A stretch of 36,209 nucleotides of DNA from contig CAYILQ010000002.1 in assembly GCA_964364345.1 (NCBI GenBank), positions 1-36,209 of the forward strand, given 5' to 3'. The DNA is from an uncultured Candidatus Saccharibacteria bacterium (lineage in GTDB: Bacteria > Patescibacteriota > Minisyncoccia > 2-02-FULL-40-12 > IGHO2-01-FULL-4-A). Under the pieces are notes generated by a model, which made no database searches, was not told where the DNA came from, and was given only the letters and a program-made list of their open reading frames with translations. Position numbers and translations under genes: made by a program. Every line of letters starts with the position of its first letter. Position 1 is the first letter of the stretch. Below are positions 2,136 to 34,503 of the stretch, piece by piece.

Positions 2136-4439
2136 TTGGACAAAATGGATTATCCCATCGAGAAAATCCGAAACATCGGCATCATCGCTCACATTGACGC
2201 TGGCAAGACAACCGTCACCGAGCGGGTTTTGTTTTACACCGGCGTTTCTCACAAGATTGGGGAGGTCCACGAGGGCGAGACCATCACCGACTGGATGGAG
2301 CAGGAACGGGAACGGGGGATTACCATTACGGCCGCGGCGGTTACCTGTTATTGGCGGCCTACTTATCAAGTAAATCAATCATCTGCCGAAGTTGCTTCTG
2401 CCGAGCTTTCGCAACCGTCAGCTCGTCCCGGTGCCGAAATTAAACCGGTCTTTGACGCCACGTCCCGGAAGTCCCGCCCCGACAATATCGGGGGCGGAGC
2501 GGCCAGAAGGCAAGGCAATATCGGCACGGGGACGGCTGCTCAACGCGTTGCGGTTCAACCTCGGCAGCGGGACGCCGAGCACCGAATAAACATCATCGAC
2601 ACCCCCGGCCACATCGATTTTACGGTCGAAGTCAAACGTTCGCTAAGAGTTCTTGACGGAGCAGTCGTGGTTTTTGACGGAGTGGCCGGGGTGGAGCCCC
2701 AATCGGAAACCAACTGGCGTTACGCCGACGAGTACGGCGTGCCCCGGATTTGTTTTATCAACAAACTTGATCGTTTGGGCGCTTCCTTTGAACGATCTTT
2801 CAGGTCAATTCTTGAGCGCTTGACCCCCTATGCCGTCAGGATGCAACTGCCCGATGGCGAGGAAGACAATTTCAAAGGCGTGGTTAATCTTTTGGAAATG
2901 AAATATTACGTCTTTGAAGGCGATCACGGCGAAAGGGTGGTGGAACAGCCGATTCTTTCAGCCCAACTGATGAAAGCTGCCGAAGTTGCCCGCCATGAAC
3001 TGGTTGAAAAAATTGTTGAGCACGACGACCAGGCAATGCACGACTACTTGGAGGGTAAAGAAATTCCCGTCCAACGTTTGCGGGAGATTTTGAGAAAAGC
3101 CGCCATCGCCAACAAACTGGTGCCGGTTTTCACCGGTTCGGCTTTGCGTAACAAGGGTGTTCAATTTGTTCTTGACGGAGTGATTGAATACTTGCCTTCC
3201 CCGATTGACAAGCCGGCAGTCAAAGGGGCTGAACCCAGAACCGGTCAGGAAATCACCCGCCAGCCCGATGAAAAAGAACCCTTCGCGGCTTTGGCTTTCA
3301 AAATCGCGACTGATGCCTATGTCGGTCAGCTGGCATTCTTCCGGGTTTATTCGGGCGTGCTCGCCGCCGGTTCTTATGTTCTAAACAGCGTTAGCGGTCA
3401 ACAGGAACGAATCGGCCGAGTCCTGCGCATGCGAGCTAACGACCGAGAAGAGATCGGAGAAGTCTATGCCGGCAATATTGCCGCCGCTGTCGGCCTCAAA
3501 GCCACCAGAACCGGCGATACTTTGTGCGACCCGGAGAACCCGATTATTTTGGAAAAGATAATTTTCCCCGAGCCGGTAATATCATTGCGCATTGAGCCCA
3601 AGACTAAAGCCGATCAGGAAAAGATGAGTTTGGCTTTGAAGAAACTGGCCGATGAAGACCCGACGTTTAGAATCAAGACCGATGAGGAAACCGCCGAAAT
3701 GATCATTTCGGGCATGGGCGAATTGCATCTGGAAATCATCGTTGAGCGGATGAAAAGAGAATTCAACGTCGGCGCCAATGTCGGCCGGCCCCAAGTGGCC
3801 TATAAAGAGACTATTAAACAAGAGGCCCAAGCCGAGGGCAAGTACATCCGCCAATCCGGCGGCCGAGGTCAGTACGGCCATGTTTGGCTGCGGGTTGAAC
3901 CCCAGCCGCGCGGCGGCGGTTTTGAGTTTATTGATGAGATCAAAAGCGGGGTCATCCCCAACGAGTTTATTCCGGCGATAGAGAAGGGGGCGCGCGAAGC
4001 CATAGACAAAGGCGTGGTCGCCGGCTTTCCCCTGGTGGACATGGCGGTGGCAGTTTATGATGGTTCCTACCACGAGGTTGACTCGTCGGAGATTGCCTTC
4101 AAAATCGCCGCTTCGGCGGCATTGCAGGAGGCGGTCAAGCGGGCCAAGCCGGTGATTCTTGAACCGATTATGAAAGTCGAGGTGATTGTGCCGGAGAAGT
4201 TTTTGGGCGAAGTCATGGGCGATCTTAATAGCCGACGCGGCCGAATTGAACAGACCAGCGACCGTTCGCCATTGAATCTCAAAGTTATTGACGCCAAGGT
4301 GCCCTTGTCAGAAATGTTTGGCTACGCCACCACCATCCGGTCACTGTCAGAAGGCCGCGGCTCTTACACCATGGAATTCAGCCGCTACGAGGAAGTGCCG
4401 GCTGGTATTGCAGAGTTGATCAAAGAAGGCAAGAAATAG
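2136..4439 (+). CDS. fusA: Elongation factor G carrying a 75-aa insertion in the G domain
   Basis: 767 aa with AHIDAGKTT (G1), DTPGHIDF (G3), NKLDR (G4) and full domains II-V ([27 protein letters not shown]). About 70 aa longer than typical EF-G because of the segment at 2355-2579. Confidence 0.95.
2355..2579. repeat. GC-rich imperfect palindromic element translated in frame inside fusA
   Basis: Arms 2383-2394/2556-2567 pair at 11/12 and 2423-2437/2521-2535 at 13/15, with a central GC hairpin near 2475-2496. Shares GTGCCGAAATT and GTTCAAnnTCGGCAGCGGGACG with 22925-23015. Confidence 0.65.
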
Positions 4440-4560
4440 CCGCTGGGTGGGAAAACTTTTTTTCCGTGTCCTGCGTCTAAAAATTAAAATATTTTGGCCC
4501 ACCTCGCAGTTTGTCAGGTTTTTATTTTCTGTCAGATCAATCGGGCCAAGGTGCGGCCGT

Positions 4561-4589
4561 TTGACTTGTGATTTTTGGTTTGCTATACT
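4561..4589 (+). promoter_or_regulatory. Sigma70-like promoter, TTGACT-17-TATACT
   Basis: -35 TTGACT at 4561-4566, 17-nt spacer, -10 TATACT at 4584-4589. About 225-240 nt upstream of the RRM-protein start. Confidence 0.5.
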
Positions 4590-4627
4590 GGCTGCAGCGT
4601 AGGTGTGTTCTCCTAGGTATAAGCCGG

Positions 4628-4733
4628 CTGTAGGGAAACCTAAGCATTGGCATCTGCCCCGACCCCGCCAGGGCGGGATCGAGGATCCACGATCCCGCCA
4701 TGGCGGGATCGGGAGAATAGGTCTTCCCTACAG
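4628..4733. repeat. 106-bp nested palindrome in the leader of the RRM-protein gene
   Basis: The outer stem pairs CTGTAGGGAAACCTA (4628-4642) with TAGGTCTTCCCTACAG (4718-4733). Inside are CCCGCC-AG-GGCGGG (4664-4677), GGGATCG/CGATCCC, and the perfect 20-bp palindrome GATCCCGCCATGGCGGGATC (4691-4710). Confidence 0.7.
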
Positions 4734-4815
4734 AAGTGAAAAGCGCGAAGCGAAAAGCGAAAAAGGCAAGGCAAAGAGGAATCATCTTTTGAGTTTTGCA
4801 CTCTAAGCTTTACGT

Positions 4816-5175
4816 TTGGCGGTAGCGAACGTGAGTAAAAAGTTATATGTTGGTGGTTTGCCTTACAGCGCCACCGATGATCAGTTGCGGCAGCACTTCT
4901 CCCAAGCCGGGAACGTGGAATCTGCCCAGGTGGTCATAGACAAGTTCTCGGGCCGCTCCCGAGGCTTCGGCTTTGTCGAAATGTCTTCCGATGAGGAAGC
5001 CAACAAAGCCATTGAGATGTTGAACGGCCAAGATTTTGGCGGCCGGAACATCACTGTCAATGAAGCCCGACCAATGGAGGCCAGAGCGCCTCGTCAAGGC
5101 GGCTTTAACCGCGGCGGCGGCGGCCGAGGCTTTGGCGGCCGAGGCGGCTACGGCGGCGGTTTGGACAGGTACTAA
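4816..5175 (+). CDS. RRM-type RNA-binding protein with a glycine/arginine-rich tail
   Basis: RNP-2 LYVGGL, RNP-1 RGFGFVEM, and a C-terminal RGGGGRGFGGRGGYGGG tail. The ORF opens at TTG 4816; in-frame GTG at 4831 (MSKKLYVGGL) is an equally plausible start. Confidence 0.9.
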   Translation: MAVANVSKKLYVGGLPYSATDDQLRQHFSQAGNVESAQVVIDKFSGRSRGFGFVEMSSDEEANKAIEMLNGQDFGGRNITVNEARPMEARAPRQGGFNRGGGGRGFGGRGGYGGGLDRY

Positions 5176-5200
5176 CCTGATCTGGCCGGCCAACTAACCC

Positions 5201-5236
5201 AACCCCGCCGCGTCAAACGCGGCGGGGTTTGTGTTT
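5201..5236 (+). terminator. Intrinsic terminator between convergent genes
   Basis: Perfect 13-bp stem AACCCCGCCGCGT / ACGCGGCGGGGTT with a 3-nt loop, followed by TGTGTTT. Confidence 0.7.
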
Positions 5237-5239
5237 CTG

Positions 5240-5698
5240 CTATCTGGTTGGTTGGCAAGTGCCAGCGGCAGTGGCTTGTGAGCTGTTCTGGTTTTGCTGG
5301 GCGGGCGTTAGATGATCGGCCGGGAACGGAGTTTTGTCTATCAAAGCGTCAATAATCCGGCCAACGGTTGAGCGAACAATCCCACCCAACCCAGCCCCAC
5401 TAGTATCGTTTGCTTGAGCGACCTGATTCAACAGATCTTTTGATTTGGCGATTAAACCCTGACTGTTTTTGATCTTGCTTTTAACGTCGGTTTGATTTTT
5501 GGCCGAGCCGGCCTCCTCAATGGCCGATTCAAGCAGAGCCAGGTTTTCTTTCAATTCACCGAGAATCCTGGCTTCTTTGACGGCGGGATTGATGACCTCA
5601 ATGACTTTCTGTTTGAAGCTGGGCAATTGGTTAATCAAAAAGCCCCCGCCAATAGCCACAATCAGGAAAAAAATGATAAACTTGACCAGAAACCCCAC
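5240..5698 (-). CDS. Hypothetical membrane-anchored protein
   Basis: 152 aa, GTG start. N-terminal TM helix (FLVKFIIFFLIVAIGGGFLI) followed by a helical/coiled region. No recognisable family. Confidence 0.55.
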   Translation of the reverse strand: MGFLVKFIIFFLIVAIGGGFLINQLPSFKQKVIEVINPAVKEARILGELKENLALLESAIEEAGSAKNQTDVKSKIKNSQGLIAKSKDLLNQVAQANDTSGAGLGGIVRSTVGRIIDALIDKTPFPADHLTPAQQNQNSSQATAAGTCQPTR

Positions 5699-5752: not shown

Positions 5753-5986
5753 ATGCCAAAAGTAGAAATCTATACCACTCCCTATTGCGCCTATTGCAAA
5801 ATGGCCAAGGAGTATTTTACCAAAAACAATATCCAGTACACCGAATACGATGTGGCTGCTGACGTTGCCCGGCGCCAGGAAATGCTTGATAAAACCCACC
5901 AGTTCGGGGTGCCCGTCATAATAATTGATGGTAAAATTGTGATTGGCTTTGACCGGCCCAAGATTAACCAGTTGTTGGGGTTATAG
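5753..5986 (+). CDS. Glutaredoxin-like / NrdH-like small redoxin
   Basis: 77 aa starting MPKVEIYTTPYCAYCKMAKE with a CxxC motif, then a GVPVIIIDGK thioredoxin-fold signature. The longer ORF 5492..5986 overlaps the opposite-strand gene and was trimmed to this ATG. Confidence 0.85.
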   Translation: MPKVEIYTTPYCAYCKMAKEYFTKNNIQYTEYDVAADVARRQEMLDKTHQFGVPVIIIDGKIVIGFDRPKINQLLGL

Positions 5987-6162
5987 ACCTCACACTATGA
6001 AATTGCGTTTAGAAGCAACAAAAACAGATGAGACGCGCAGTTTTGGAGCGTGGCAAAATGTGAGCCGTACCCGGCGGTACGGTGAACATTTTTCCCGCGA
6101 AAAACAAGCGTATCGCTGTTTTTGTTGTCTTATTGAGTGCAATTTCATAGTGTGAGGTCTAT
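5983..6162. repeat. 180-bp long hairpin element with perfect 24-bp termini
   Basis: ATAGACCTCACACTATGAAATTGC (5983-6006) is the exact reverse complement of 6139-6162. There is a second 15-bp arm pair (AAGCAACAAAAACAG / CTGTTTTTGTTGTCTT) and a central CCGTACC-CGGC-GGTACGG hairpin. It overlaps the upstream stop codon and ends 9 nt before the SOD ATG. Confidence 0.85.
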
Positions 6163-6171
6163 AGGCTAAAC

Positions 6172-6831
6172 ATGGATTCTAAACCTCTGCCATTCAAAAA
6201 ACTCAACGGTATTTCCGAAAAAACTCTGGAGATCCACCACGACAAGCTTTATGTCGGCTATGTAAAGAAGGTTGATGAGATTGAGGAGAAGCTGGGAAAA
6301 CTAAGGGACGAGATTATAGCCGGTACGGCCCCGGGCGGGAATGCGACTTACAGCGAACTTCGGGCCTTAAAAGACGCCGAGACTTTTGCCGTCAACGGCG
6401 TCTATCTTCACGAGTGGTATTTTGATGTCTTAGGCGTCCCCGTGCCTGATATTGATACCGGCCTTGGGCGCGAAGGGACCGAGGGCGGCGCTTACTCAAA
6501 GGCCCCGGAATTGAGCAAAGCGATTTCTGAAAAATGGGGCTCGGTTGAAAATTTCATGAGATATTTTTCTGAATGCGGCATGGCTTCGCGCGGTTGGTCG
6601 CTTCTGGTTTGGGACACCAAGCGGGGAAGACTGATGCAGTACAACGGCGACGCCCACAATCAAGGCGGGGTCTGGGGCTGCCTCCCCATCATCGTCCTTG
6701 ACGTTTACGAACACGCCTATTTCATTGACTTCGGCTCCGACCGCAAGGCCTACATTGAAGCTTTCTGGCGGAATCTCAATTGGTCAGCGGCAGAGGCATT
6801 ATTTCTCACGGTTAGAAATGTTAAGTTATAA
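6172..6831 (+). CDS. Fe/Mn-family superoxide dismutase
   Basis: N-terminal LEIHHDKLYVGYV, mid LHEWYF, and C-terminal DVYEHAYFIDFGSDRKAYIEAFWRNLNW (the D-x-[WY]-E-H-A-Y signature). Has a short extra loop before the SEKWGS segment. Confidence 0.85.
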   Translation: MDSKPLPFKKLNGISEKTLEIHHDKLYVGYVKKVDEIEEKLGKLRDEIIAGTAPGGNATYSELRALKDAETFAVNGVYLHEWYFDVLGVPVPDIDTGLGREGTEGGAYSKAPELSKAISEKWGSVENFMRYFSECGMASRGWSLLVWDTKRGRLMQYNGDAHNQGGVWGCLPIIVLDVYEHAYFIDFGSDRKAYIEAFWRNLNWSAAEALFLTVRNVKL

Positions 6832-9668: not shown

Positions 9669-10220
9669 ATGAAAAATATGATTTATCTCGGCTCCGATCA
9701 CAGAGGATACGAGTTGAAGGAGAAAATCAAGAAGTGGCTTTTAGATTGGGGTTATCAGTCTGAAGACTGCGGCGCTTTTGAATATGACGAAAAAGACGAC
9801 TATCCGGACTTTGTTCATGGAGTCGCCCAAAAAGTTTCCGCAGACCCGGAAAATTCAAAAGCGATCATTCTGGGCGGTTCCGGACAGGGTGAGGCAATGG
9901 TGGCGAACCGGTATAAAGGTGTCAGAGCGGCGGTTTTTTACGGGCCCCCGTTTCAGTTTAAGATGATGTCGTGGTCTAAATGGCTTATCTTAGGCAGCGG
10001 GGGGCTTAATGTGGCCCAGAAGAGCGAATTTTCCGTTCTGCAAAAACTTGTTAAACTGTCTCGCGAACACAATGATGCCAATGTCTTGTCTCTGGGCGCT
10101 TCCTTCGTTGATGACGACGTGGCCCAAAAGATAATCAAACTCTGGCTGGAGACACCGTTTAGCGGCGAAGAGAGGCATATTAGGCGCCTTGGTAAAATAG
10201 AGGATTTGAAAAATGACTAG
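9669..10220 (+). CDS. rpiB: RpiB/LacA/LacB-family ribose-5-phosphate isomerase
   Basis: MKNMIYLGSDHRGYELKEKI..., SGQGEAMVANR, LSREHNDANVLSLGA and a C-terminal ERHIRR. The ORF opens at 9624 but ATG 9669 or 9678 fit the family N-terminus. About 22 extra residues precede LSREHND. Confidence 0.8.
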   Translation: MKNMIYLGSDHRGYELKEKIKKWLLDWGYQSEDCGAFEYDEKDDYPDFVHGVAQKVSADPENSKAIILGGSGQGEAMVANRYKGVRAAVFYGPPFQFKMMSWSKWLILGSGGLNVAQKSEFSVLQKLVKLSREHNDANVLSLGASFVDDDVAQKIIKLWLETPFSGEERHIRRLGKIEDLKND

Positions 10221-10463: not shown

Positions 10464-11204
10464 TGAGAGTACTCTCATGGTGACTTGAGGTGCGACCTCA
10501 AATAAATGAGAAAGGTAAAGTTTGTCAAAGGAGAGTTTTTCCATGTCTATAATCGTGGCGTGGATAAGCGCAATATTTTCCTGGATCAGGGGGATTATTT
10601 GAGGTTTTGCAAAGCGCTTAAATTTTTTAATTCCGAGAGTCCTTGCTGGATAGCAACGGTTAACAGAAAAGACCAAACTCCTTCCCCCGAAGATCAATTG
10701 GTGGATGTAATCTGCTTTTGTTTAATGCCTAATCATTATCATCTGCTTTTGCGGCCAATAACCGAAAATGGGGTGACCAAGTTCATGCGTAAACTAAACA
10801 CCGGCTATACTATTTATTTTAATATTAAGCATCAGAGAACCGGTAGATTGTTTGAAAATAAATTTAAAGCCATCCATGTTGATAACGACCTGTACCTTAA
10901 ACACCTTACTCGATATATCCACTTAAACCCGCTTGATCTGTATCAAGGTGAATGGCGGGAGGGCAAAGTAGGGAACGCCAAATCATCCTTGCGATACATA
11001 GAGGATTATCCGTGGTCAAGTTATTCCAGCTATGTTTCGAAATTTAAGCGCAATGATATAATTAACCCTAAACCGCTAATGGAAATCTTTGGAGGCGAAA
11101 ACTATGAAAACTTTGTTGCCTCTTGGACAGCACGTGATTTCGATACGGTCAGACCATTGACGCTGGAATAGTTTGTGTTTTGTTGAGGTCGCACCTCAAT
11201 AAAT
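10464..11204 (+). mobile_element. IS200/RAYT-like unit: Y1 (HUH) transposase bounded by terminal hairpins
   Basis: TTGAGGT-GCG-ACCTCAA (10485-10501) and TTGAGGT-CGC-ACCTCAA (11183-11199) have the same stem and complementary loops, and each is followed by (A)TAAAT. They lie 715 bp end to end, and a 14-bp palindrome TGAGAGTACTCTCA (10464-10477) sits just upstream. Confidence 0.7.
10506..11171 (+). CDS. IS200-like / REP-associated tyrosine (Y1, HUH) transposase
   Basis: 221 aa. HUH motif in CLMPNHYHLLLRP and a catalytic-Tyr motif RYIHLNP, as in the Y1_Tnp (PF01797-type) RAYT-like proteins. Confidence 0.85.
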   Translation: MRKVKFVKGEFFHVYNRGVDKRNIFLDQGDYLRFCKALKFFNSESPCWIATVNRKDQTPSPEDQLVDVICFCLMPNHYHLLLRPITENGVTKFMRKLNTGYTIYFNIKHQRTGRLFENKFKAIHVDNDLYLKHLTRYIHLNPLDLYQGEWREGKVGNAKSSLRYIEDYPWSSYSSYVSKFKRNDIINPKPLMEIFGGENYENFVASWTARDFDTVRPLTLE

Positions 11205-15478: not shown

Positions 15479-16335
15479 GAACCTTGGCCGAATACTTCCA
15501 AGATGCTAAAGCTAATCGATGGGCGATTGGCCATTTTAATTTTTCCACGGCCGATCAGTTAAAAGCGATTGTGGAAACGGCGGCGGAGCTCAAGTCGCCG
15601 GTGATGGCGGGGACTTCGGAGGGCGAGGCCAAGTTTATCGGTTACGATCAAGCGGTGGCTTTGGCGCGGTCCTATCAAGAAGAGGGCCATGCCGTTTGGC
15701 TCAACGCCGACCATCACAAGAGTTTTGAATCTTGCAAGATGGCTATTGACGCTGGTTATGACACGGTTTTGATTGATGCCTCTAGATTGCCGCTGGCGGA
15801 AAACATTGCTTTGACAAAGAAAGTCGTTGATTATGCTAGCTCGATCAATGCCGAGATTGCCGTTGAAGGCGAACTTGGCTATTTAAGAGGGGAGTCGCAA
15901 GTTCAGGAAAAAGTTGAGATCAGCCCCAGCGATTACACCCAGCCCCAGGAGGCTTCAGATTTTGTCAGTCGTACCGGCGTCGGCCGACTGGCGATTGTTT
16001 TCGGCAATATCCATGGCATCGTTACCCAACAAGAGGAACATCTCGATGCCAACGCCCTCAAAGCGATCGCGGCAGCTGTGCCAAATGTTGCCTTAGTACT
16101 CCACGGCGCCTCGGGCCTGCCGGCTGCCGAAGTTGGAGAAGCGATAGCTAACGGTATCGCCAATATCCACATCAACACCGAGCTCCGGCTGGTTTATCAC
16201 GATAAATTGCACGAAGAGTTGGAAAAAGAGCCGGGACAAACTACGCCCTACAAATTCCTGACCCCATCTCTTGAAGCGATGAAGGAATTAATCAGCCAAA
16301 AACTCAAACTTTTCGGCTCGGAGAACAAGATCTAG
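15475..16335 (+). CDS. fba: Class II fructose-bisphosphate aldolase
   Basis: 286 aa with GHFNF, ADHHKS, VEGELG, GNIHG and LVLHGASG motifs of class II ketose-bisphosphate aldolases. Confidence 0.9.
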   Translation: MRTLAEYFQDAKANRWAIGHFNFSTADQLKAIVETAAELKSPVMAGTSEGEAKFIGYDQAVALARSYQEEGHAVWLNADHHKSFESCKMAIDAGYDTVLIDASRLPLAENIALTKKVVDYASSINAEIAVEGELGYLRGESQVQEKVEISPSDYTQPQEASDFVSRTGVGRLAIVFGNIHGIVTQQEEHLDANALKAIAAAVPNVALVLHGASGLPAAEVGEAIANGIANIHINTELRLVYHDKLHEELEKEPGQTTPYKFLTPSLEAMKELISQKLKLFGSENKI

Positions 16336-17314: not shown

Positions 17315-18658
17315 ATGCGATTCAATCCAGAAATTTTCAGAGCCTATGATGTTAGGGGGGTTTATGATAAAGATCTTGATTGTGATTTTGCGGTTGGTCT
17401 TGGAACGGCGTTAGTCAGCTATCTCAAGGGTCCAAAGATCCTGGTGGCTCACGATGATCGCGATTCTTCAATTGCCCTCGCCCAGTCGCTGATGAATGGT
17501 GTGATGGCAGGCGGTAGCAAGGTAATTTACCTTGGCCTAGCGACGACACCTTTTTTTAATTTTGTTTTCGGCCAGCTTGGGGTTGCCGGTGGGGCAATGG
17601 TTACAGCTTCTCATAACCCCCCTCAATACGCCGGGTTCAAGATTTTTGGCAGGGGCGGCAATCCTCTTGGTCTTGATTCGGGCCTGGGGATTATAAAGGA
17701 GTTGGTTGAAAAGAATCAGTTTGATAAATTCAGAAAACAAGGCGACCTGATCAAGCCAGACCGTAAGAATTTGCTCGAGAAGTATGTAAAATTCGTTGCT
17801 GCCAAAGCGAAATCGAGGCCTGGAGAATTAAGGGATTTAAAAGTAAAGATTTCGGGGTCAGGGGTAGCAATGGAGGAAGCAGGGCTTCTGGCCAAAATCT
17901 GTGGCTTATCGGTTGACGACAATGGCGATATCCGTTTTCTGTTTGACGGTGATGCTGACCGGTTAGCCGTCATCAATGAAAATGGCGATCCCGTCCGTTC
18001 CGATCACCTCGTAGGTCTTTTGGCCAAGGATGCCGTTAAGTTTTTGTCTAAACCGAAGGTGGTTTACGATTCGCGATTTTCCAAAGGGGTGACCCAGAAG
18101 TTTGGCGAGTGGGGGGTCAAAGGCTTTCGGTCCCGGGTGGGTCGGGTTTTCGTTAGGGGTGAGATGATTAAACGCCAAGCGGATATCGGCGGTGAACTTT
18201 CCGGCCACGTTTATTTCAAAGAAGCCAATTACCACGAGCTGCCGCTTTTGGCGATGTTGAGACTTCTCAAAATATTGGCCCGAAGCAAAATGTCGATCGT
18301 GGAATTAGTTAAACCGTTCCAAACTTGGTATAACTCCGGCGAGATTAATTTTGAGATCGCGGATTTACCGAATCGGCCGGACTCCGGCTCGGAGCCTCCA
18401 AATAGACCACTATCATTTCACTACGATCGTGGTAAAATGATAGTGTGGGATTTGTTCGAGTTACTAAAACAAAAATTCAGCGACGGGGAATTTGATGACT
18501 TGGACGGCTTGACCATTGAATACCCGGATTGGTGGTTTAACATCCGGCCCTCAAACACCGAGCCGGTGCTGCGGCTTGTGGTTGAAGCAAAATCCCAAGA
18601 ACTGTTAGAGCAAAAGATATCAGAAGTTTCAGGGTTAATAAAAACCGCTCTGTTTTAG
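17315..18658 (+). CDS. Phosphomannomutase/phosphoglucomutase (alpha-D-phosphohexomutase)
   Basis: TASHNPPQYAGFK active-site Ser loop, DGDADR Mg loop, GGELSGH sugar loop and RPSNTEPVLR phosphate loop. About 30 extra residues precede the C-terminal domain. Confidence 0.9.
   Translation: MRFNPEIFRAYDVRGVYDKDLDCDFAVGLGTALVSYLKGPKILVAHDDRDSSIALAQSLMNGVMAGGSKVIYLGLATTPFFNFVFGQLGVAGGAMVTASHNPPQYAGFKIFGRGGNPLGLDSGLGIIKELVEKNQFDKFRKQGDLIKPDRKNLLEKYVKFVAAKAKSRPGELRDLKVKISGSGVAMEEAGLLAKICGLSVDDNGDIRFLFDGDADRLAVINENGDPVRSDHLVGLLAKDAVKFLSKPKVVYDSRFSKGVTQKFGEWGVKGFRSRVGRVFVRGEMIKRQADIGGELSGHVYFKEANYHELPLLAMLRLLKILARSKMSIVELVKPFQTWYNSGEINFEIADLPNRPDSGSEPPNRPLSFHYDRGKMIVWDLFELLKQKFSDGEFDDLDGLTIEYPDWWFNIRPSNTEPVLRLVVEAKSQELLEQKISEVSGLIKTALF
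18408..18445. repeat. 38-bp palindrome family, copy 1, inside the phosphohexomutase CDS
   Basis: CACTATCATTTCACTACGATCGTGGTAAAATGATAGTG matches the consensus CACTATCATTTTACCACGATCGTGGTAAAATGATAGTG at 36/38. Translated as LSFHYDRGKMIV. Confidence 0.85.
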
Positions 18659-22621: not shown

Positions 22622-23707
22622 TTAAGACCGCGATTTCTTAAAGGTTTCTATGGCGGATGCGTCAAGAGGATCAACCCCTAAATGGCGAGCTAAATCAAAG
22701 GAAGTCGAGACCGCCAGGTTGTAGTTGCCAAGAATTTTTTCAAGTCTGCCGCCGCCCGTCAGTTTGATGACTTCGTGATCAATACCCATAGCCGCCAGAA
22801 ACGAGGCGAACTTTTCCAGTATGTCTTTGTCGGCTTTGTCTTCGTCAGGGTCGGCTAGGATTATCGGAAAAGGTTTAAGTGTTCCAACGGCATTGCCAAT
22901 GAACTGCCGACCTTGCTCGCCCTCGTGCCGAAATTGAGCTTGCCTTTGGCACGAAGGGACGGAAGGACAAAAGGGACTTGCTGGCAAAGCCAAGTTCAAT
23001 TTCGGCAGCGGGACGGTCAATGTCGGCGCCGGGACGCTCGGCGCCGGGACGGCGAAGCCGGCCAATTCATTGTGGGCCGCTTCGGGAAAGTAGTTTGAGA
23101 ACGAATGAATCTTGCAATCCTCATTAAAATTAGTCTTCCAGAACTTGGCCAGATAACGCCATTGGTAGGACGAGTAAATCAGAGGTGTTTTGAAACCGAT
23201 CCGACTGGAGAACCTAGGGCCAACAACAGGTTTGGTCTGGATATTGGTTGGCAGCTTGAAATCAATGATAGCAGAATTGTTAAGCAGTGTCAACAAAGAG
23301 GCCAGCATATAGCCAACTCCGAGTCTTGGTGGTACTGGATCGTCAGGTAGTTTGATTAAAAGTGCGTCATGTTCTCGGGCAGTCTTGGCCAACTCACCAC
23401 CCTTAGTTATAGCTGCTGTGGGGATTCCCAATTCTTGGGCCGCCTTAAAAGATGAAATTGTCTCTTCGGTATTGCCCGACCAGGAAGTGCAAATGATCAG
23501 GTGCTCACGACCGGCCCAATGGGGGAGACCAAAACCCCGCTGGATGTAACAATTGAAGCCGTCAAGCCAGAGCGTTGAGATTATCTCTCCCGGAATCGCC
23601 GAACCGCCCAGGCCGCAGAAAATTACCCGGCTAAAATCACCGGAAACCTTGACATTTTTGGCCGCTTTAGCCCCTTCGGCTAGCTGCCTGGGAAAGTTAA
23701 TGGTCAT
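22622..23707 (-). CDS. Bifunctional phosphoglucose/phosphomannose isomerase (SIS domain) with a ~57-aa insertion
   Basis: 361 aa. SIS motifs (FCGLGGSAIPG, ICTSWSGNTEET) and PEAAHNE in the C-terminal half. A proline-rich low-complexity block (aa ~219-275) interrupts it. Confidence 0.8.
   Translation of the reverse strand: MTINFPRQLAEGAKAAKNVKVSGDFSRVIFCGLGGSAIPGEIISTLWLDGFNCYIQRGFGLPHWAGREHLIICTSWSGNTEETISSFKAAQELGIPTAAITKGGELAKTAREHDALLIKLPDDPVPPRLGVGYMLASLLTLLNNSAIIDFKLPTNIQTKPVVGPRFSSRIGFKTPLIYSSYQWRYLAKFWKTNFNEDCKIHSFSNYFPEAAHNELAGFAVPAPSVPAPTLTVPLPKLNLALPASPFCPSVPSCQRQAQFRHEGEQGRQFIGNAVGTLKPFPIILADPDEDKADKDILEKFASFLAAMGIDHEVIKLTGGGRLEKILGNYNLAVSTSFDLARHLGVDPLDASAIETFKKSRS
22904..23062. 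repeat. GC-rich palindromic element (same family as 2355-2579) translated in frame inside pgi
   Basis: Arms 22925-22942 / 22991-23008 pair at 16/18. TCGGC(A/G)(G/C)CGGGACG occurs three times (23002, 23023, 23038). Shares an 11/11 and a 20/22 core with the fusA element in the same plus-strand orientation, although the host gene is on the minus strand. Confidence 0.65.
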
Positions 23708-27528: not shown

Positions 27529-28563
27529 ATGCGAGATAACGTTTTGGCAACTTTGGCCTATTATGATGTTTTGGACTTTCCGCTCAAAGCCGAGGAGGTT
27601 TTGAAGTGCCTGATTAGACTTGATCCAAGATCACTATCATTTTACCACGCCCGCCAAAATTTTTGGCCTAGCGCCTCTGGCGCGGATCATGAAAACGGAT
27701 CCAAAAACTTAGGCGGGCACGATCGTGGTAATTTGATAGTGACCATTGCTGATATTAAAAAAATTCTTGACCAGTTGATCCTGGAAAAATTGGCCGATTT
27801 TAATCAGGGTTACTATTTCTTACCTGGTCGCGATTACCTCGCACCTCTGCGGCTTAAACGTGAAAAAATTTCCCGAAAAAAATGGGCCAAAGCCCGGCAA
27901 GCCATCTGGTGGCTGAAGTTTATTCCTTACGTTGAAGCGGTTTTTGCTTCGGGCTCACTAGCCCTCAACAATTGCGACGAGTTAAGCGACCTGGACGTTT
28001 TGGTGGTTACCAAACATGGCCGGATTTGGCTGACCAGGTTTTGGATTACCGCCTGGCTTTCCGTCATCGGTGCCCGCCGTAAGCCGTTTGACAAAATCGC
28101 CCCCGACAAAATCTGCCTCAACCACTATATCACCGATAAGTCGCTGCGAATTCCTTTTGAAAGCATGTACAACGCCCAGAATTATGTCAATCTAAAGCCG
28201 GTGTTGATCAGAAATTGGAAGATCGTTGAAAAATTTAGGGAGGAGAATAATTGGATTAGTAAGTTCGTGATTGGAGATTGGGCGATTAGCAATGATCCGG
28301 AAAAACTTATCAGAATCAACCGACTGGCGAGACTGGTTTCCGGGATTGGCAAAACGACCCTCAATACAAAATTGGGGGATTGGTTGGAAAAAATTGCCAG
28401 AAGATATCAAATAAAACGGATCGAAGCTAACCCTTTGACCAAAAGTCCAACCGGCCATGTCGTTTACTCTGACGAACAACTGGCCTTTCACCCTGATTCC
28501 CCGGAGTCTTCGGTCTTGGAAAGATTTGATCAGAAGCTTGCCGAATTGAAAATAGTTGTCTGA
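27529..28563 (+). CDS. Hypothetical protein with a polymerase-beta-type nucleotidyltransferase motif
   Basis: 344 aa. ASGSLALNNCDELSDLDVLVV (GS-x-SDxD). The N-terminal region is interrupted by a translated repeat element. Confidence 0.65.
   Translation: MRDNVLATLAYYDVLDFPLKAEEVLKCLIRLDPRSLSFYHARQNFWPSASGADHENGSKNLGGHDRGNLIVTIADIKKILDQLILEKLADFNQGYYFLPGRDYLAPLRLKREKISRKKWAKARQAIWWLKFIPYVEAVFASGSLALNNCDELSDLDVLVVTKHGRIWLTRFWITAWLSVIGARRKPFDKIAPDKICLNHYITDKSLRIPFESMYNAQNYVNLKPVLIRNWKIVEKFREENNWISKFVIGDWAISNDPEKLIRINRLARLVSGIGKTTLNTKLGDWLEKIARRYQIKRIEANPLTKSPTGHVVYSDEQLAFHPDSPESSVLERFDQKLAELKIVV
27632..27741. repeat. Composite element: 38-bp palindrome (copy 2) split by a 68-bp inner palindrome
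   Basis: The outer halves are CACTATCATTTTACCACG (27632-27649) and CACGATCGTGGTAATTTGATAGTG (27718-27741). The inner CCCGCCAAAATTTTTGG...CCAAAAACTTAGGCGGG (27650-27717) is flanked by a direct CACG duplication. Confidence 0.8.
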
Positions 28564-34429: not shown

Positions 34430-34503
34430 CACTATCATTTTACCACGATCGTGAGAATCTGATAGTACTATTATTTTACCACGATCGTGGTAAAATGATA
34501 GCG
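34430..34503. repeat. 38-bp palindrome family, copies 3 and 4 in tandem (intergenic)
   Basis: 34430-34467 matches the consensus at 33/38 and 34466-34503 at 35/38. Preceded by the 14-nt tandem ATTATG(G/A)GTTCTCG x2 (34394-34421). Confidence 0.85.

Follow-up and report, generated by a model that had tools for sequence, protein, structure and literature searches.

In-frame palindromic repeats in fusA and other genes: a probable selfish DNA family of Patescibacteria

In an uncultured Candidatus Saccharibacteria bacterium represented by a metagenome-assembled genome (MAG), the fusA gene for elongation factor EF-G contains a GC-rich palindromic segment that is in frame with the GTPase domain. The gene lies on contig CAYILQ010000002.1 (assembly GCA_964364345.1), a stretch of 36,209 nt that is hereafter called the window. 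An initial annotation of this DNA described the segment as a dispersed palindromic repeat that had colonised an essential gene without breaking its frame, in the manner of Rickettsia palindromic elements (RPEs). The observation is real, and its interpretation is supported by additional copies, by the lineage specificity of the insert, and by conservation at the DNA level. The fusA segment is very probably a selfish, RPE-like palindromic repeat of a Patescibacteria family, inserted in frame and present as nested copies. The initial annotation also knew of no such element in this kind of organism, and a full-text literature search has likewise found no description of such a family in Patescibacteria. 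The initial annotation missed the nesting, a copy in a gene for Fe/Mn SOD, the phylum-wide spread of the family and its invasion of rRNA genes, and a Y1 transposase gene 8 kb away.

The EF-G of the window is full length with all five Pfam domains, and corresponds to database protein P0001, which starts at ATG 2145 and has 764 aa. The gene and the extra segment are placed as follows:

2136..4439, + strand: fusA (EF-G) open reading frame (ORF), 767 aa from TTG 2136; Pfam GTP_EFTU, EFG_II to EFG_C
2358..2576, + strand: 73 in-frame codons without Thermus counterpart, between strand beta2 (..TCYW) and G3

When aligned with EF-G of T. thermophilus, query residues 3-74 correspond to Thermus 4-75 and query residues 148-764 to Thermus 76-689, and Thermus K75 and D76 are adjacent where the window protein has residues 75-147 (nt 2358-2576); this clean break identifies residues 75-147 as extra. 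The nearest EF-Gs, from Candidatus Yanofskybacteria and other Paceibacteria/Parcubacteria (73-85% identity), are 697-724 residues long with the single exception of P0006 (736), and the segment, missing in the ~120 nearest EF-Gs, is confined to P0001. Furthermore, the fusA DNA of two relatives, L096 and L097, has nothing comparable at the insert site, and no repeat copies were found in their DNA within 39 kb. One of these, L097, is syntenic with the window through S12, S7, fusA, RRM, glutaredoxin, PMT and onward. Orthologue alignment thus marks the insert as lineage-specific.

The length of the insert must be read against that of its host loop. The initial annotation counted 75 extra residues where EF-Gs were said to have 2-10; the extra segment stands, being absent in Thermus, but the range given as normal does not, as the loop from ..YW to xHRINIID is hypervariable in the nearest Patescibacteria EF-Gs, at roughly 11-36 residues. 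The net gain in EF-G is therefore about 55-65 residues, not 75. Because the first ~8 codons of the segment (RPTYQVNQ) resemble the native loop of relatives such as P0007 (TPTYKRQ), the true insert is taken to occupy approximately 2382-2576 (65 codons).

The insert is GC-richer than its flanks, as had been noted, at 64% GC; the remainder of fusA has 53% and the whole window 49%. The additional ORFs listed earlier, 2392..2589 (+) and 2418..2612 (-), are present; across 2382-2576 two plus-strand frames are stop-free, and each minus-strand frame holds one or two stops. The proposed long imperfect hairpin is borne out by RNA folding, with the 225-nt stretch reaching -98.6 kcal/mol (z = -4.35) and none of 200 shuffles folding as well. 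In an AlphaFold2 (AF2) model, residues 82-144 have pLDDT <50 and lie between confident strands at 68-73 and 149-155.

All three pairs of arms claimed initially were recovered, at 82-92% identity, together with an additional pair of 24 nt, and the arms resolve into an inner and an outer element:

2383-2394/2556-2567: inverted repeat, 12 nt, 92%
2424-2441/2517-2534: inverted repeat, 18 nt, 89%
2472-2482/2488-2498: inverted repeat, 11 nt, 82%
2424-2447/2551-2574: additional inverted repeat, 24 nt, 83%
2424..2534, + strand: inner, complete palindromic element, 111 nt, 37 codons
2424-2442, + strand: left terminal unit of the inner element, CGTCCCGGTGCCGAAATTA
2516-2534, + strand: right terminal unit of the inner element, CAATATCGGCACGGGGACG
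2472..2498, + strand: central GC hairpin of the inner element, TCCCGCCCCGA / TCGGGGGCGGA
2383..2423, + strand: left half of the older, decayed outer element, its CGTCCC tag lost, with partial units CTGCCGAAGTTG (2383-2394) and CTGCCGAGCTT (2398-2408)
2535..2574, + strand: right half of the outer element, with the CTCAACGCG module and terminal unit GTTCAACCTCGGCAGCGGGACG (2553-2574)

The outer partial units, the CTCAACGCG module and the right-end unit pair with each other and form the older copy. The fusA insert is two nested copies, so the same site was hit twice. Across the family described below, partial ends that are nested or in tandem occur often, a hint that elements insert into or beside earlier copies.

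Further copies are found in the window, giving three loci in all: fusA, a PGI-like gene, and the SOD gene.

22622..23707, - strand: PGI-like gene that carries the second copy; bifunctional PGI/PMI type with a bact-PGI_C SIS domain
22906..23051, + strand: second element, with a 98-nt core at 22918-23015, CGCCCTCGTGCCGAAATTGA...CAATTTCGGCAGCGGGACG
23015-23036 and 23037-23051: tandem right-end units of the second element; 22906-22916: partial left unit
6433..6485, + strand: half of an element (third copy), in frame within the Fe/Mn SOD ORF 6172..6831
9948..10043, + strand: possible fourth, strongly decayed copy, a 32-residue insert (PFQFKMMSWSKWLILGSGGLNVAQKSEFSVLQ) in RpiB; low confidence

The 14-mer motif TCGGCAGCGGGACG occurs six times with at most two mismatches, always in the fusA and PGI-like loci, and 13 times with at most three mismatches where 2.9 matches are expected. 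Both cores that had been reported to recur in pgi are indeed found in the PGI-like ORF, and the 22-nt cores of the two genes are 91% identical, although they lie on opposite coding strands and in different frames. The second element is read on the minus strand as VPLPKLNLALPASPF...AQFRHEGEQG and folds at z = -3.6, and the Pfam domain of its host spans 186 residues for 135 model positions, some 51 of them extra. The half copy in SOD was found by a sensitive local search (profile E = 1.3e-6); it reads VPVPDIDTGLGREGTEGG, and the protein is ~12 residues longer than Aquifex SOD 1coj. Alignment of the arms gives the half-consensus CGTCCCnnTGCCGAAATTGAnCTTGcCTTTGGC, and a profile built from it matches only these three loci in the window. 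The left arm is read as RPGAEIK in EF-G, VPLPKLN in PGI and VPVPDID in SOD, that is, in a different frame in EF-G from that of PGI and SOD, and the homology must therefore reside in the DNA and not in the peptide.

The RpiB insert is absent from the orthologue in syntenic L097, and its DNA is weakly unit-like (TAGGCAGCGGGGGG); it may be a decayed copy of the element. A unit-profile match at window position 15846, inside a class-II aldolase (SINAEIAVEGE), was dismissed as chance. Just upstream of the SOD gene, within 5973-6172, is a 34-nt inverted repeat (88%), and the gene itself is possibly a recent acquisition, since syntenic L097 has no SOD called at the corresponding position.

Outside the window, the element is recognised by its ends, CGTCCCnnTGCCGAnATTG ... 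CAATnTCGGCAnnGGGACG, or as written for the element, CGTCCCnnTGCCGA. Public metagenome contigs were scanned with the exact two-part pattern GCCGANATTN{55,85}AATNTCGGCRNNGGGAC, which yielded 78 loci where a handful were expected; approximately 70 were judged to be real, and about eight high-GC matches without the remaining motif were taken as chance. With the three loci of the window, nucleotide-level copies thus exceed chance, in keeping with the dispersal first proposed. The matching contigs are mostly of 35-55% GC, and many derive from groundwater size fractions; the Hainich wells are one source of many loci. The 78 loci reduce to 73 non-redundant elements, in which conservation starts sharply at CGTCCC, with unconserved sequence outside. 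The consensus ends are CGTCCC.../...GGGACG, each end bears a terminal motif of 19 nt, and the recurring inner modules are GTTGAG..CTCAAC, CCTTTGGC..GCCAAAGG, and a central GTCCC-N4-GGGAC hairpin. Within elements, GTCCC and GGGAC words are enriched eight-fold. A 24-nt unit profile has 258 matches in 536 kb, typically as plus/minus pairs 75-115 nt apart, and in some contigs the units are crowded, with 11 in 3 kb of L163 and 14 in L160. Furthermore, the inner sequence of an element in a 23S rRNA gene (L111) is 75% identical to that of one in the UvrC coding sequence (L131), 75% to that of L112 and 81% to that of L157, and the last two share 84%; identities of 75-84% across such contexts imply that whole elements, rather than merely a short word, were dispersed.

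These observations bear on two alternative accounts of the fusA segment. One is ordinary expansion of the loop by slippage or local duplication, with the similarity to pgi reflecting composition and chance. The beta2-beta3 loop does vary in length among relatives, the peptide is low in complexity, and tandem partial units lie at the borders of elements, but this account is very improbable, given that 22-nt cores are 91% identical in another gene, strand and frame, that the same termini and inner modules recur in ~70 unrelated loci, rRNA genes included, and that the two-part patterns have no matches in shuffled versions of the window. The other is an artefact of assembly or binning, in which chimeric reads were joined in fusA. 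The sequence is a MAG contig with a jump in GC content within the insert; however, three inserts on this one contig all preserve the frame and are stop-free, the same type of element appears in dozens of independent assemblies from different projects, and the nested architecture is internally coherent, so that an artefact is hardly credible. Accumulation like that of DNA-uptake sequences is also unlikely; such sequences arise by point change and create no 100-nt insertions.

The family appears to be previously undescribed and, judging from the sequences assembled here, spread over many genera of Patescibacteria. No matches to the pattern were found in viral contigs. A scan of GTDB representatives with the tandem pattern TCGGCRSSGGGACGN{1,30}TCGGCRSSGGGACG, whose R/S/S restriction left out the commonest end variants ACT, ATT and ATC, gave no Patescibacterium among the 80 of 95 matches listed, and these single matches, mostly in high-GC genomes, were chance-like.

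The 73 elements fall into three settings, with 31 in frame inside genes, 16 in 16S or 23S rRNA genes, and 26 elsewhere. All 31 gene-internal copies are in frame, stop-free and within long ORFs, and no frame-breaking coding copy was seen among the 73 elements. Their hosts include GyrB, NusA, DnaG, a class-I aminoacyl-tRNA synthetase of 1235 residues, UvrC, an XerC/D-type recombinase and Sua5/TsaC, as well as an O-antigen-ligase-like protein, a CAP-domain protein and intein-bearing fibre proteins, one of which has five copies. A single 23S gene can hold as many as four. Five of the 26 remaining elements were tested with Pfam, and four of them lie in spacers between complete, different genes (ClpP and RNase Y, ABC-3 and response regulator, ParA and ParB, SecF and a sigma-like gene); the fifth (L113) was assigned neither to a spacer nor to a split gene. 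Split genes were thereby set aside, as no flanking pair of ORFs among these five was shown to be one. The 23S rRNA genes of L111, L128, L141, L157 and L159, which carry elements, contain between one and three group I introns as well.

The presence of copies in 16S and 23S rRNA genes raises the alternative that the element acts as RNA, be it an intervening sequence, an intron-like segment or a protein-binding RNA, with the open frame being incidental. Whole elements do fold far better than shuffles (mean z = -5.0, with 94% of elements below -2), and the inner hairpin is best kept in rRNA copies, where z is as low as -10. In many coding copies, in contrast, the inner palindrome has decayed to z near 0, both window copies included. 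Moreover, every one of the gene-internal copies keeps the host frame open, and four of the five tested non-genic cases are true spacers, which counts against splicing, because splicing would impose no such constraint. No Pfam domain (Hint) indicative of an intein was found on the inserts of EF-G and ten other host proteins, and no Rfam match to a self-splicing intron or any other family; at gathering thresholds and at E <=10, Rfam returned only tRNAs and sub-threshold noise (CRISPR-DR23, 17.7 bits). No covariation links the variable positions of one arm to those of the other (p >0.4), so the ends behave as two motif copies, and a compensated RNA stem is ruled out by this independence. Finally, reading frames are used unevenly, a bias that implies that selection sees the peptide. 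An RNA-level element is thus improbable.

Frame use also bears on the opposite possibility, that the insert is a functional peptide module (RPxAEI...NxGxGT) that spreads because it is useful, for instance in an interaction or as a flexible linker. The 31 coding copies are read as RPxAEI..NxGxGT in 23 cases, as VPxPKL in six and as SxCRNC in two, a bias towards the hydrophilic RPxAEI frame (p = 4e-6) that suggests selection on the translated peptide after insertion. A functional module would account for this preference for one frame, and for the GyrB copy, which is kept as a linker throughout a clade. The terminal DNA word also encodes motifs of large fibre-like surface proteins: GNVGIGT is specified there by GGCAACGTCGGCATCGGGACG, essentially the same word as the element terminal unit, on two contigs of different GC content (L158 at 1408, 1888, 2158 and 2395; L160 at 7158, 7410 and 7680, among other sites). 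Against such a module, three frames are in use, that of PGI and SOD differing from that of EF-G, and copies occur in rRNA genes and spacers. When the terminal unit is read in the RPxAEI frame (CGT, CCC, nnT, GCC, ATT), the third position is fixed in most codons, but positions 1 and 2 of the codon for residue 3 are free, so that synonymous positions are conserved and a residue is not. AF2 gives no confident structure for the insert, no Pfam domain covers it in EF-G or in ten other host proteins, and a profile of 16 insert peptides, whose motifs are too short, found nothing at E <=10 in 5.8 billion proteins. The element is, as far as sequence comparison goes, conserved as DNA, and there is little probability that a useful peptide drove its spread.

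How long such copies persist is seen in GyrB of one Paceibacteria clade, in which the element occupies the same site in several contigs. Its ends are intact in L106, L142 and L101, slightly decayed in L178, and clearly decayed in L176, where the right end has a 6-nt deletion; in L177 only an acidic linker is left. Among related GyrB C-termini with both anchors, 97 of 100 carry an acidic linker, GKGADVSEIQEAEG...KKSNK, which agrees in both length and position. This series, together with the clade-wide linker, indicates that the family is old and that coding copies fade into ordinary-looking linkers, and the fusA insert, being unique to the MAG of the window, is comparatively young. In L176 (1-2076) and L177 (1552-3663), GyrB is split into two adjacent ORFs 27-150 nt apart, the N-terminal one with HATPase_c and DNA_gyraseB and the C-terminal one with Toprim and GyrB_C, and several database GyrB C-terminal proteins are ~190-220 aa long and come from long contigs.

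A selfish repeat would account for these features in a few steps. A palindromic repeat of ~95-120 nt would have entered the GTPase domain of EF-G at its beta2-beta3 loop, where length is tolerated, and a second copy would later have landed within the first. Their combined length of 195 nt is divisible by three, and the fusA frame runs through them without a stop; transcription and translation would therefore yield a surface loop of 65 residues, probably disordered, tolerated and presumably neutral. Frame-breaking copies would be purged by selection, and in gene-dense genomes such purging would leave survivors mainly in protein loops, in helix extensions of rRNA and in short spacers. Over time, coding copies would lose the palindromic core and the ends and become ordinary low-complexity linkers.

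The means of movement is a separate question. In 61 elements, apparent target-site duplications were absent in 40 and measured 1 nt in 16, 2 nt in four and 3 nt in one; the short ones are read as chance matches, and there is no consistent duplication. A classic DDE cut-and-paste miniature inverted-repeat transposable element (MITE) is therefore unlikely, and was rejected on this ground. Among the unit pairs of the 536 kb, where contigs are short and patterns with long gaps were outside the scan, no autonomous insertion sequence shared these ends. Enzymes of the Y1 type move hairpin DNA without target duplications. Three properties of the element (no duplications, a hairpin build, CGTC at the ends) hint at mobilisation in trans by a RayT-like transposase of the single-strand HUH/Y1 type, for which the window encodes a candidate:

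10485..11199, + strand: candidate mobilising enzyme region, with a Y1_Tnp (IS200/RayT-like) gene at 10506..11171
10485-10501 and 11183-11199: inverted 17-nt hairpins TTGAGGTGCGACCTCAA flanking this gene

The protein has the HUH motif NHYHLLL and the Tyr motif RYIHLNP, and scores 36 bits with Pfam Y1_Tnp, above the cut-off of 23, and 36-40 bits with the NCBIfam RAYT model, under the cut-off of 80. The gene has been inserted between two genes, rpiB and one for a 2-hydroxyacid dehydrogenase, that lie side by side in L097, where Y1 is absent. Movement of the element in trans by such an enzyme is a guess, possible without being probable. Besides the window, a homologue (39% identity) is encoded in L133 and a fragment in L101. 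In L133, a perfect hairpin of ~27 nt, (C/T)GTCACCAAGGCC-N-GGCCTTGGTGAC(G/A), which starts CGTC or TGTC, is found at 274-300, 489-517 and 1031-1054; it flanks the RayT-like gene and is also in frame inside it, a REPtron-like arrangement.

Several considerations weigh against the reading of the fusA segment as one copy of a mobile, selfish family in Patescibacteria. Copies from this genome were counted within the 36-kb window, and the taxonomy of most metagenome loci was deduced from GC content, sample source and named GyrB relatives. The exact boundaries of the fusA insertion are uncertain because the host loop is hypervariable. Retention of the segment in mRNA and protein is deduced from frame and stop statistics alone. 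The definition of the gene-internal class required an open frame spanning the element and is thus biased against frame-breaking copies; the assignment to spacers comes from five of 26 cases. No polymorphic site, empty in one genome and filled in another, was seen, which leaves recent mobility conjectural. Lastly, the hairpin TTGAGGTGCGACCTCAA occurs only at the two flanks of the Y1 gene and differs from the element termini, and RayT-like genes were found in 3 of ~80 loci only.

The window has other repeats as well. A near-perfect palindrome of ~36 nt, ACTATCATTTTACCACGATCGTGGTAAAATGATAGT, unrelated to this family, is present in at least four places, apparently between genes (18409-18445, 27631-27660, 27718-27743 and 34430-34501), and could be a terminator, an operator or a family like the repetitive extragenic palindromes (REPs). 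At the contig end, 35265-36189 consists of 12-nt periodic runs (CCnACnCCnACn) in three blocks ~360 nt apart, which would give Thr/Pro-rich repeats if read in frame. In L097, positions 3886-5275 hold a reverse transcriptase (RVT_1) gene adjoining a bAvd gene, a pair like that of diversity-generating retroelements.

In-frame selfish DNA within essential genes has so far been regarded as a peculiarity of Rickettsia. The present family would be a second, independent case, in an unrelated lineage with small, gene-dense genomes and affecting many core genes, and the recurrence of the pattern suggests that mobile DNA generally leads to this in genomes nearly free of non-coding sequence. The inserts would inflate and distort the marker-protein and rRNA alignments by which lineages of the candidate phyla radiation (CPR) are placed, and would account for some odd low-complexity loops in CPR proteins. 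The elements can also serve as a natural catalogue of insertion-tolerant sites, and the GyrB series traces how element DNA becomes an ordinary linker. A bolder proposal is that the elements form an undescribed, phylum-wide class of coding palindromes that is still mobile through RayT-like Y1 enzymes, prefers older copies as targets, and is a major source of lineage-specific insertions in housekeeping proteins and of short expansion segments in 16S/23S rRNA of the CPR; this we consider doubtful. The terminal CGTC and the nearby Y1 transposases nonetheless provide a testable lead on how CGTC-type repeats move and, if the link to RayT is true, the missing transposase for such repeats, some rickettsial RPEs included.

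Compared to known systems, the element resembles MITEs (Correia/NEMIS, ERIC, Nezha, QMITE and others; PMC10969869) in its size, its ~19-nt terminal inverted repeats, the lack of coding capacity of its own and the occasional in-frame fusion of MITEs with host ORFs. Unlike MITEs, it has no target-site duplication, and a far larger fraction of its copies lies inside genes and rRNA than is usual for them; no parent insertion sequence sharing its ends was found. The Y1_Tnp protein of the window, encoded between inverted hairpins, recalls the REPtron/RAYT systems, as does its L133 homologue, which is likewise flanked and also interrupted; however, the flanking hairpins are not the element termini, and the score with the RAYT model is below the cut-off.

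A further parallel is the superfamily of CGTC-tagged REPs (Di Nocera et al. 2013, PMC3733652), which was described from five phyla, with no mention of Patescibacteria. Like the present element, these repeats have a terminal CGTC, occur as inverted pairs of units, 20-100 bp apart, whose spacers have complementary ends or small stem-loops within them, include copies that encode 20-80 residues within genes for replication, repair and aminoacyl-tRNA synthetases, and lack an identified dedicated transposase. Each CGTC REP unit, however, forms its own stem-loop, with a stem of 8-9 bp, a loop of 4-5 nt and a CCA tail (PMC3733652), whereas in the element the terminal 40 nt have no fold by themselves better than that of shuffled sequence (mean z = -0.5; 16% below -2) and its 19-nt terminal motif is not self-complementary. 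A stem-loop unit of the REP type was rejected for half elements on this evidence, and since the terminal unit lacks its own stem-loop, the family falls outside the definition of the CGTC-tagged REPs.

The RPEs of Rickettsia (Ogata et al. 2000, 2002; summarised in PMC10969869 and PMC3733652) show a likeness as well. They too are palindromic repeats of ~100-150 nt dispersed in a small, gene-dense genome, they too insert in frame into unrelated housekeeping genes and add a peptide, and they too have no known transposase; proteins of R. conorii decorated with RPE-1 are reportedly expressed in vivo (PMC3733652), and a 2024 review of MITEs still singles out RPEs as unusually frequent (PMC10969869). 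RPE-4 and RPE-6 end in CGTC and are counted among the CGTC-tagged REPs (PMC3733652), and this tag is the sole resemblance in sequence that was noted, the RPEs having been compared by description only. In contrast to RPEs, which belong to Alphaproteobacteria, the family described here has Patescibacteria as hosts and spans many genera, is frequent in 16S and 23S rRNA genes, and combines nesting and tandem partial ends with a visible series of decay into ordinary linkers.

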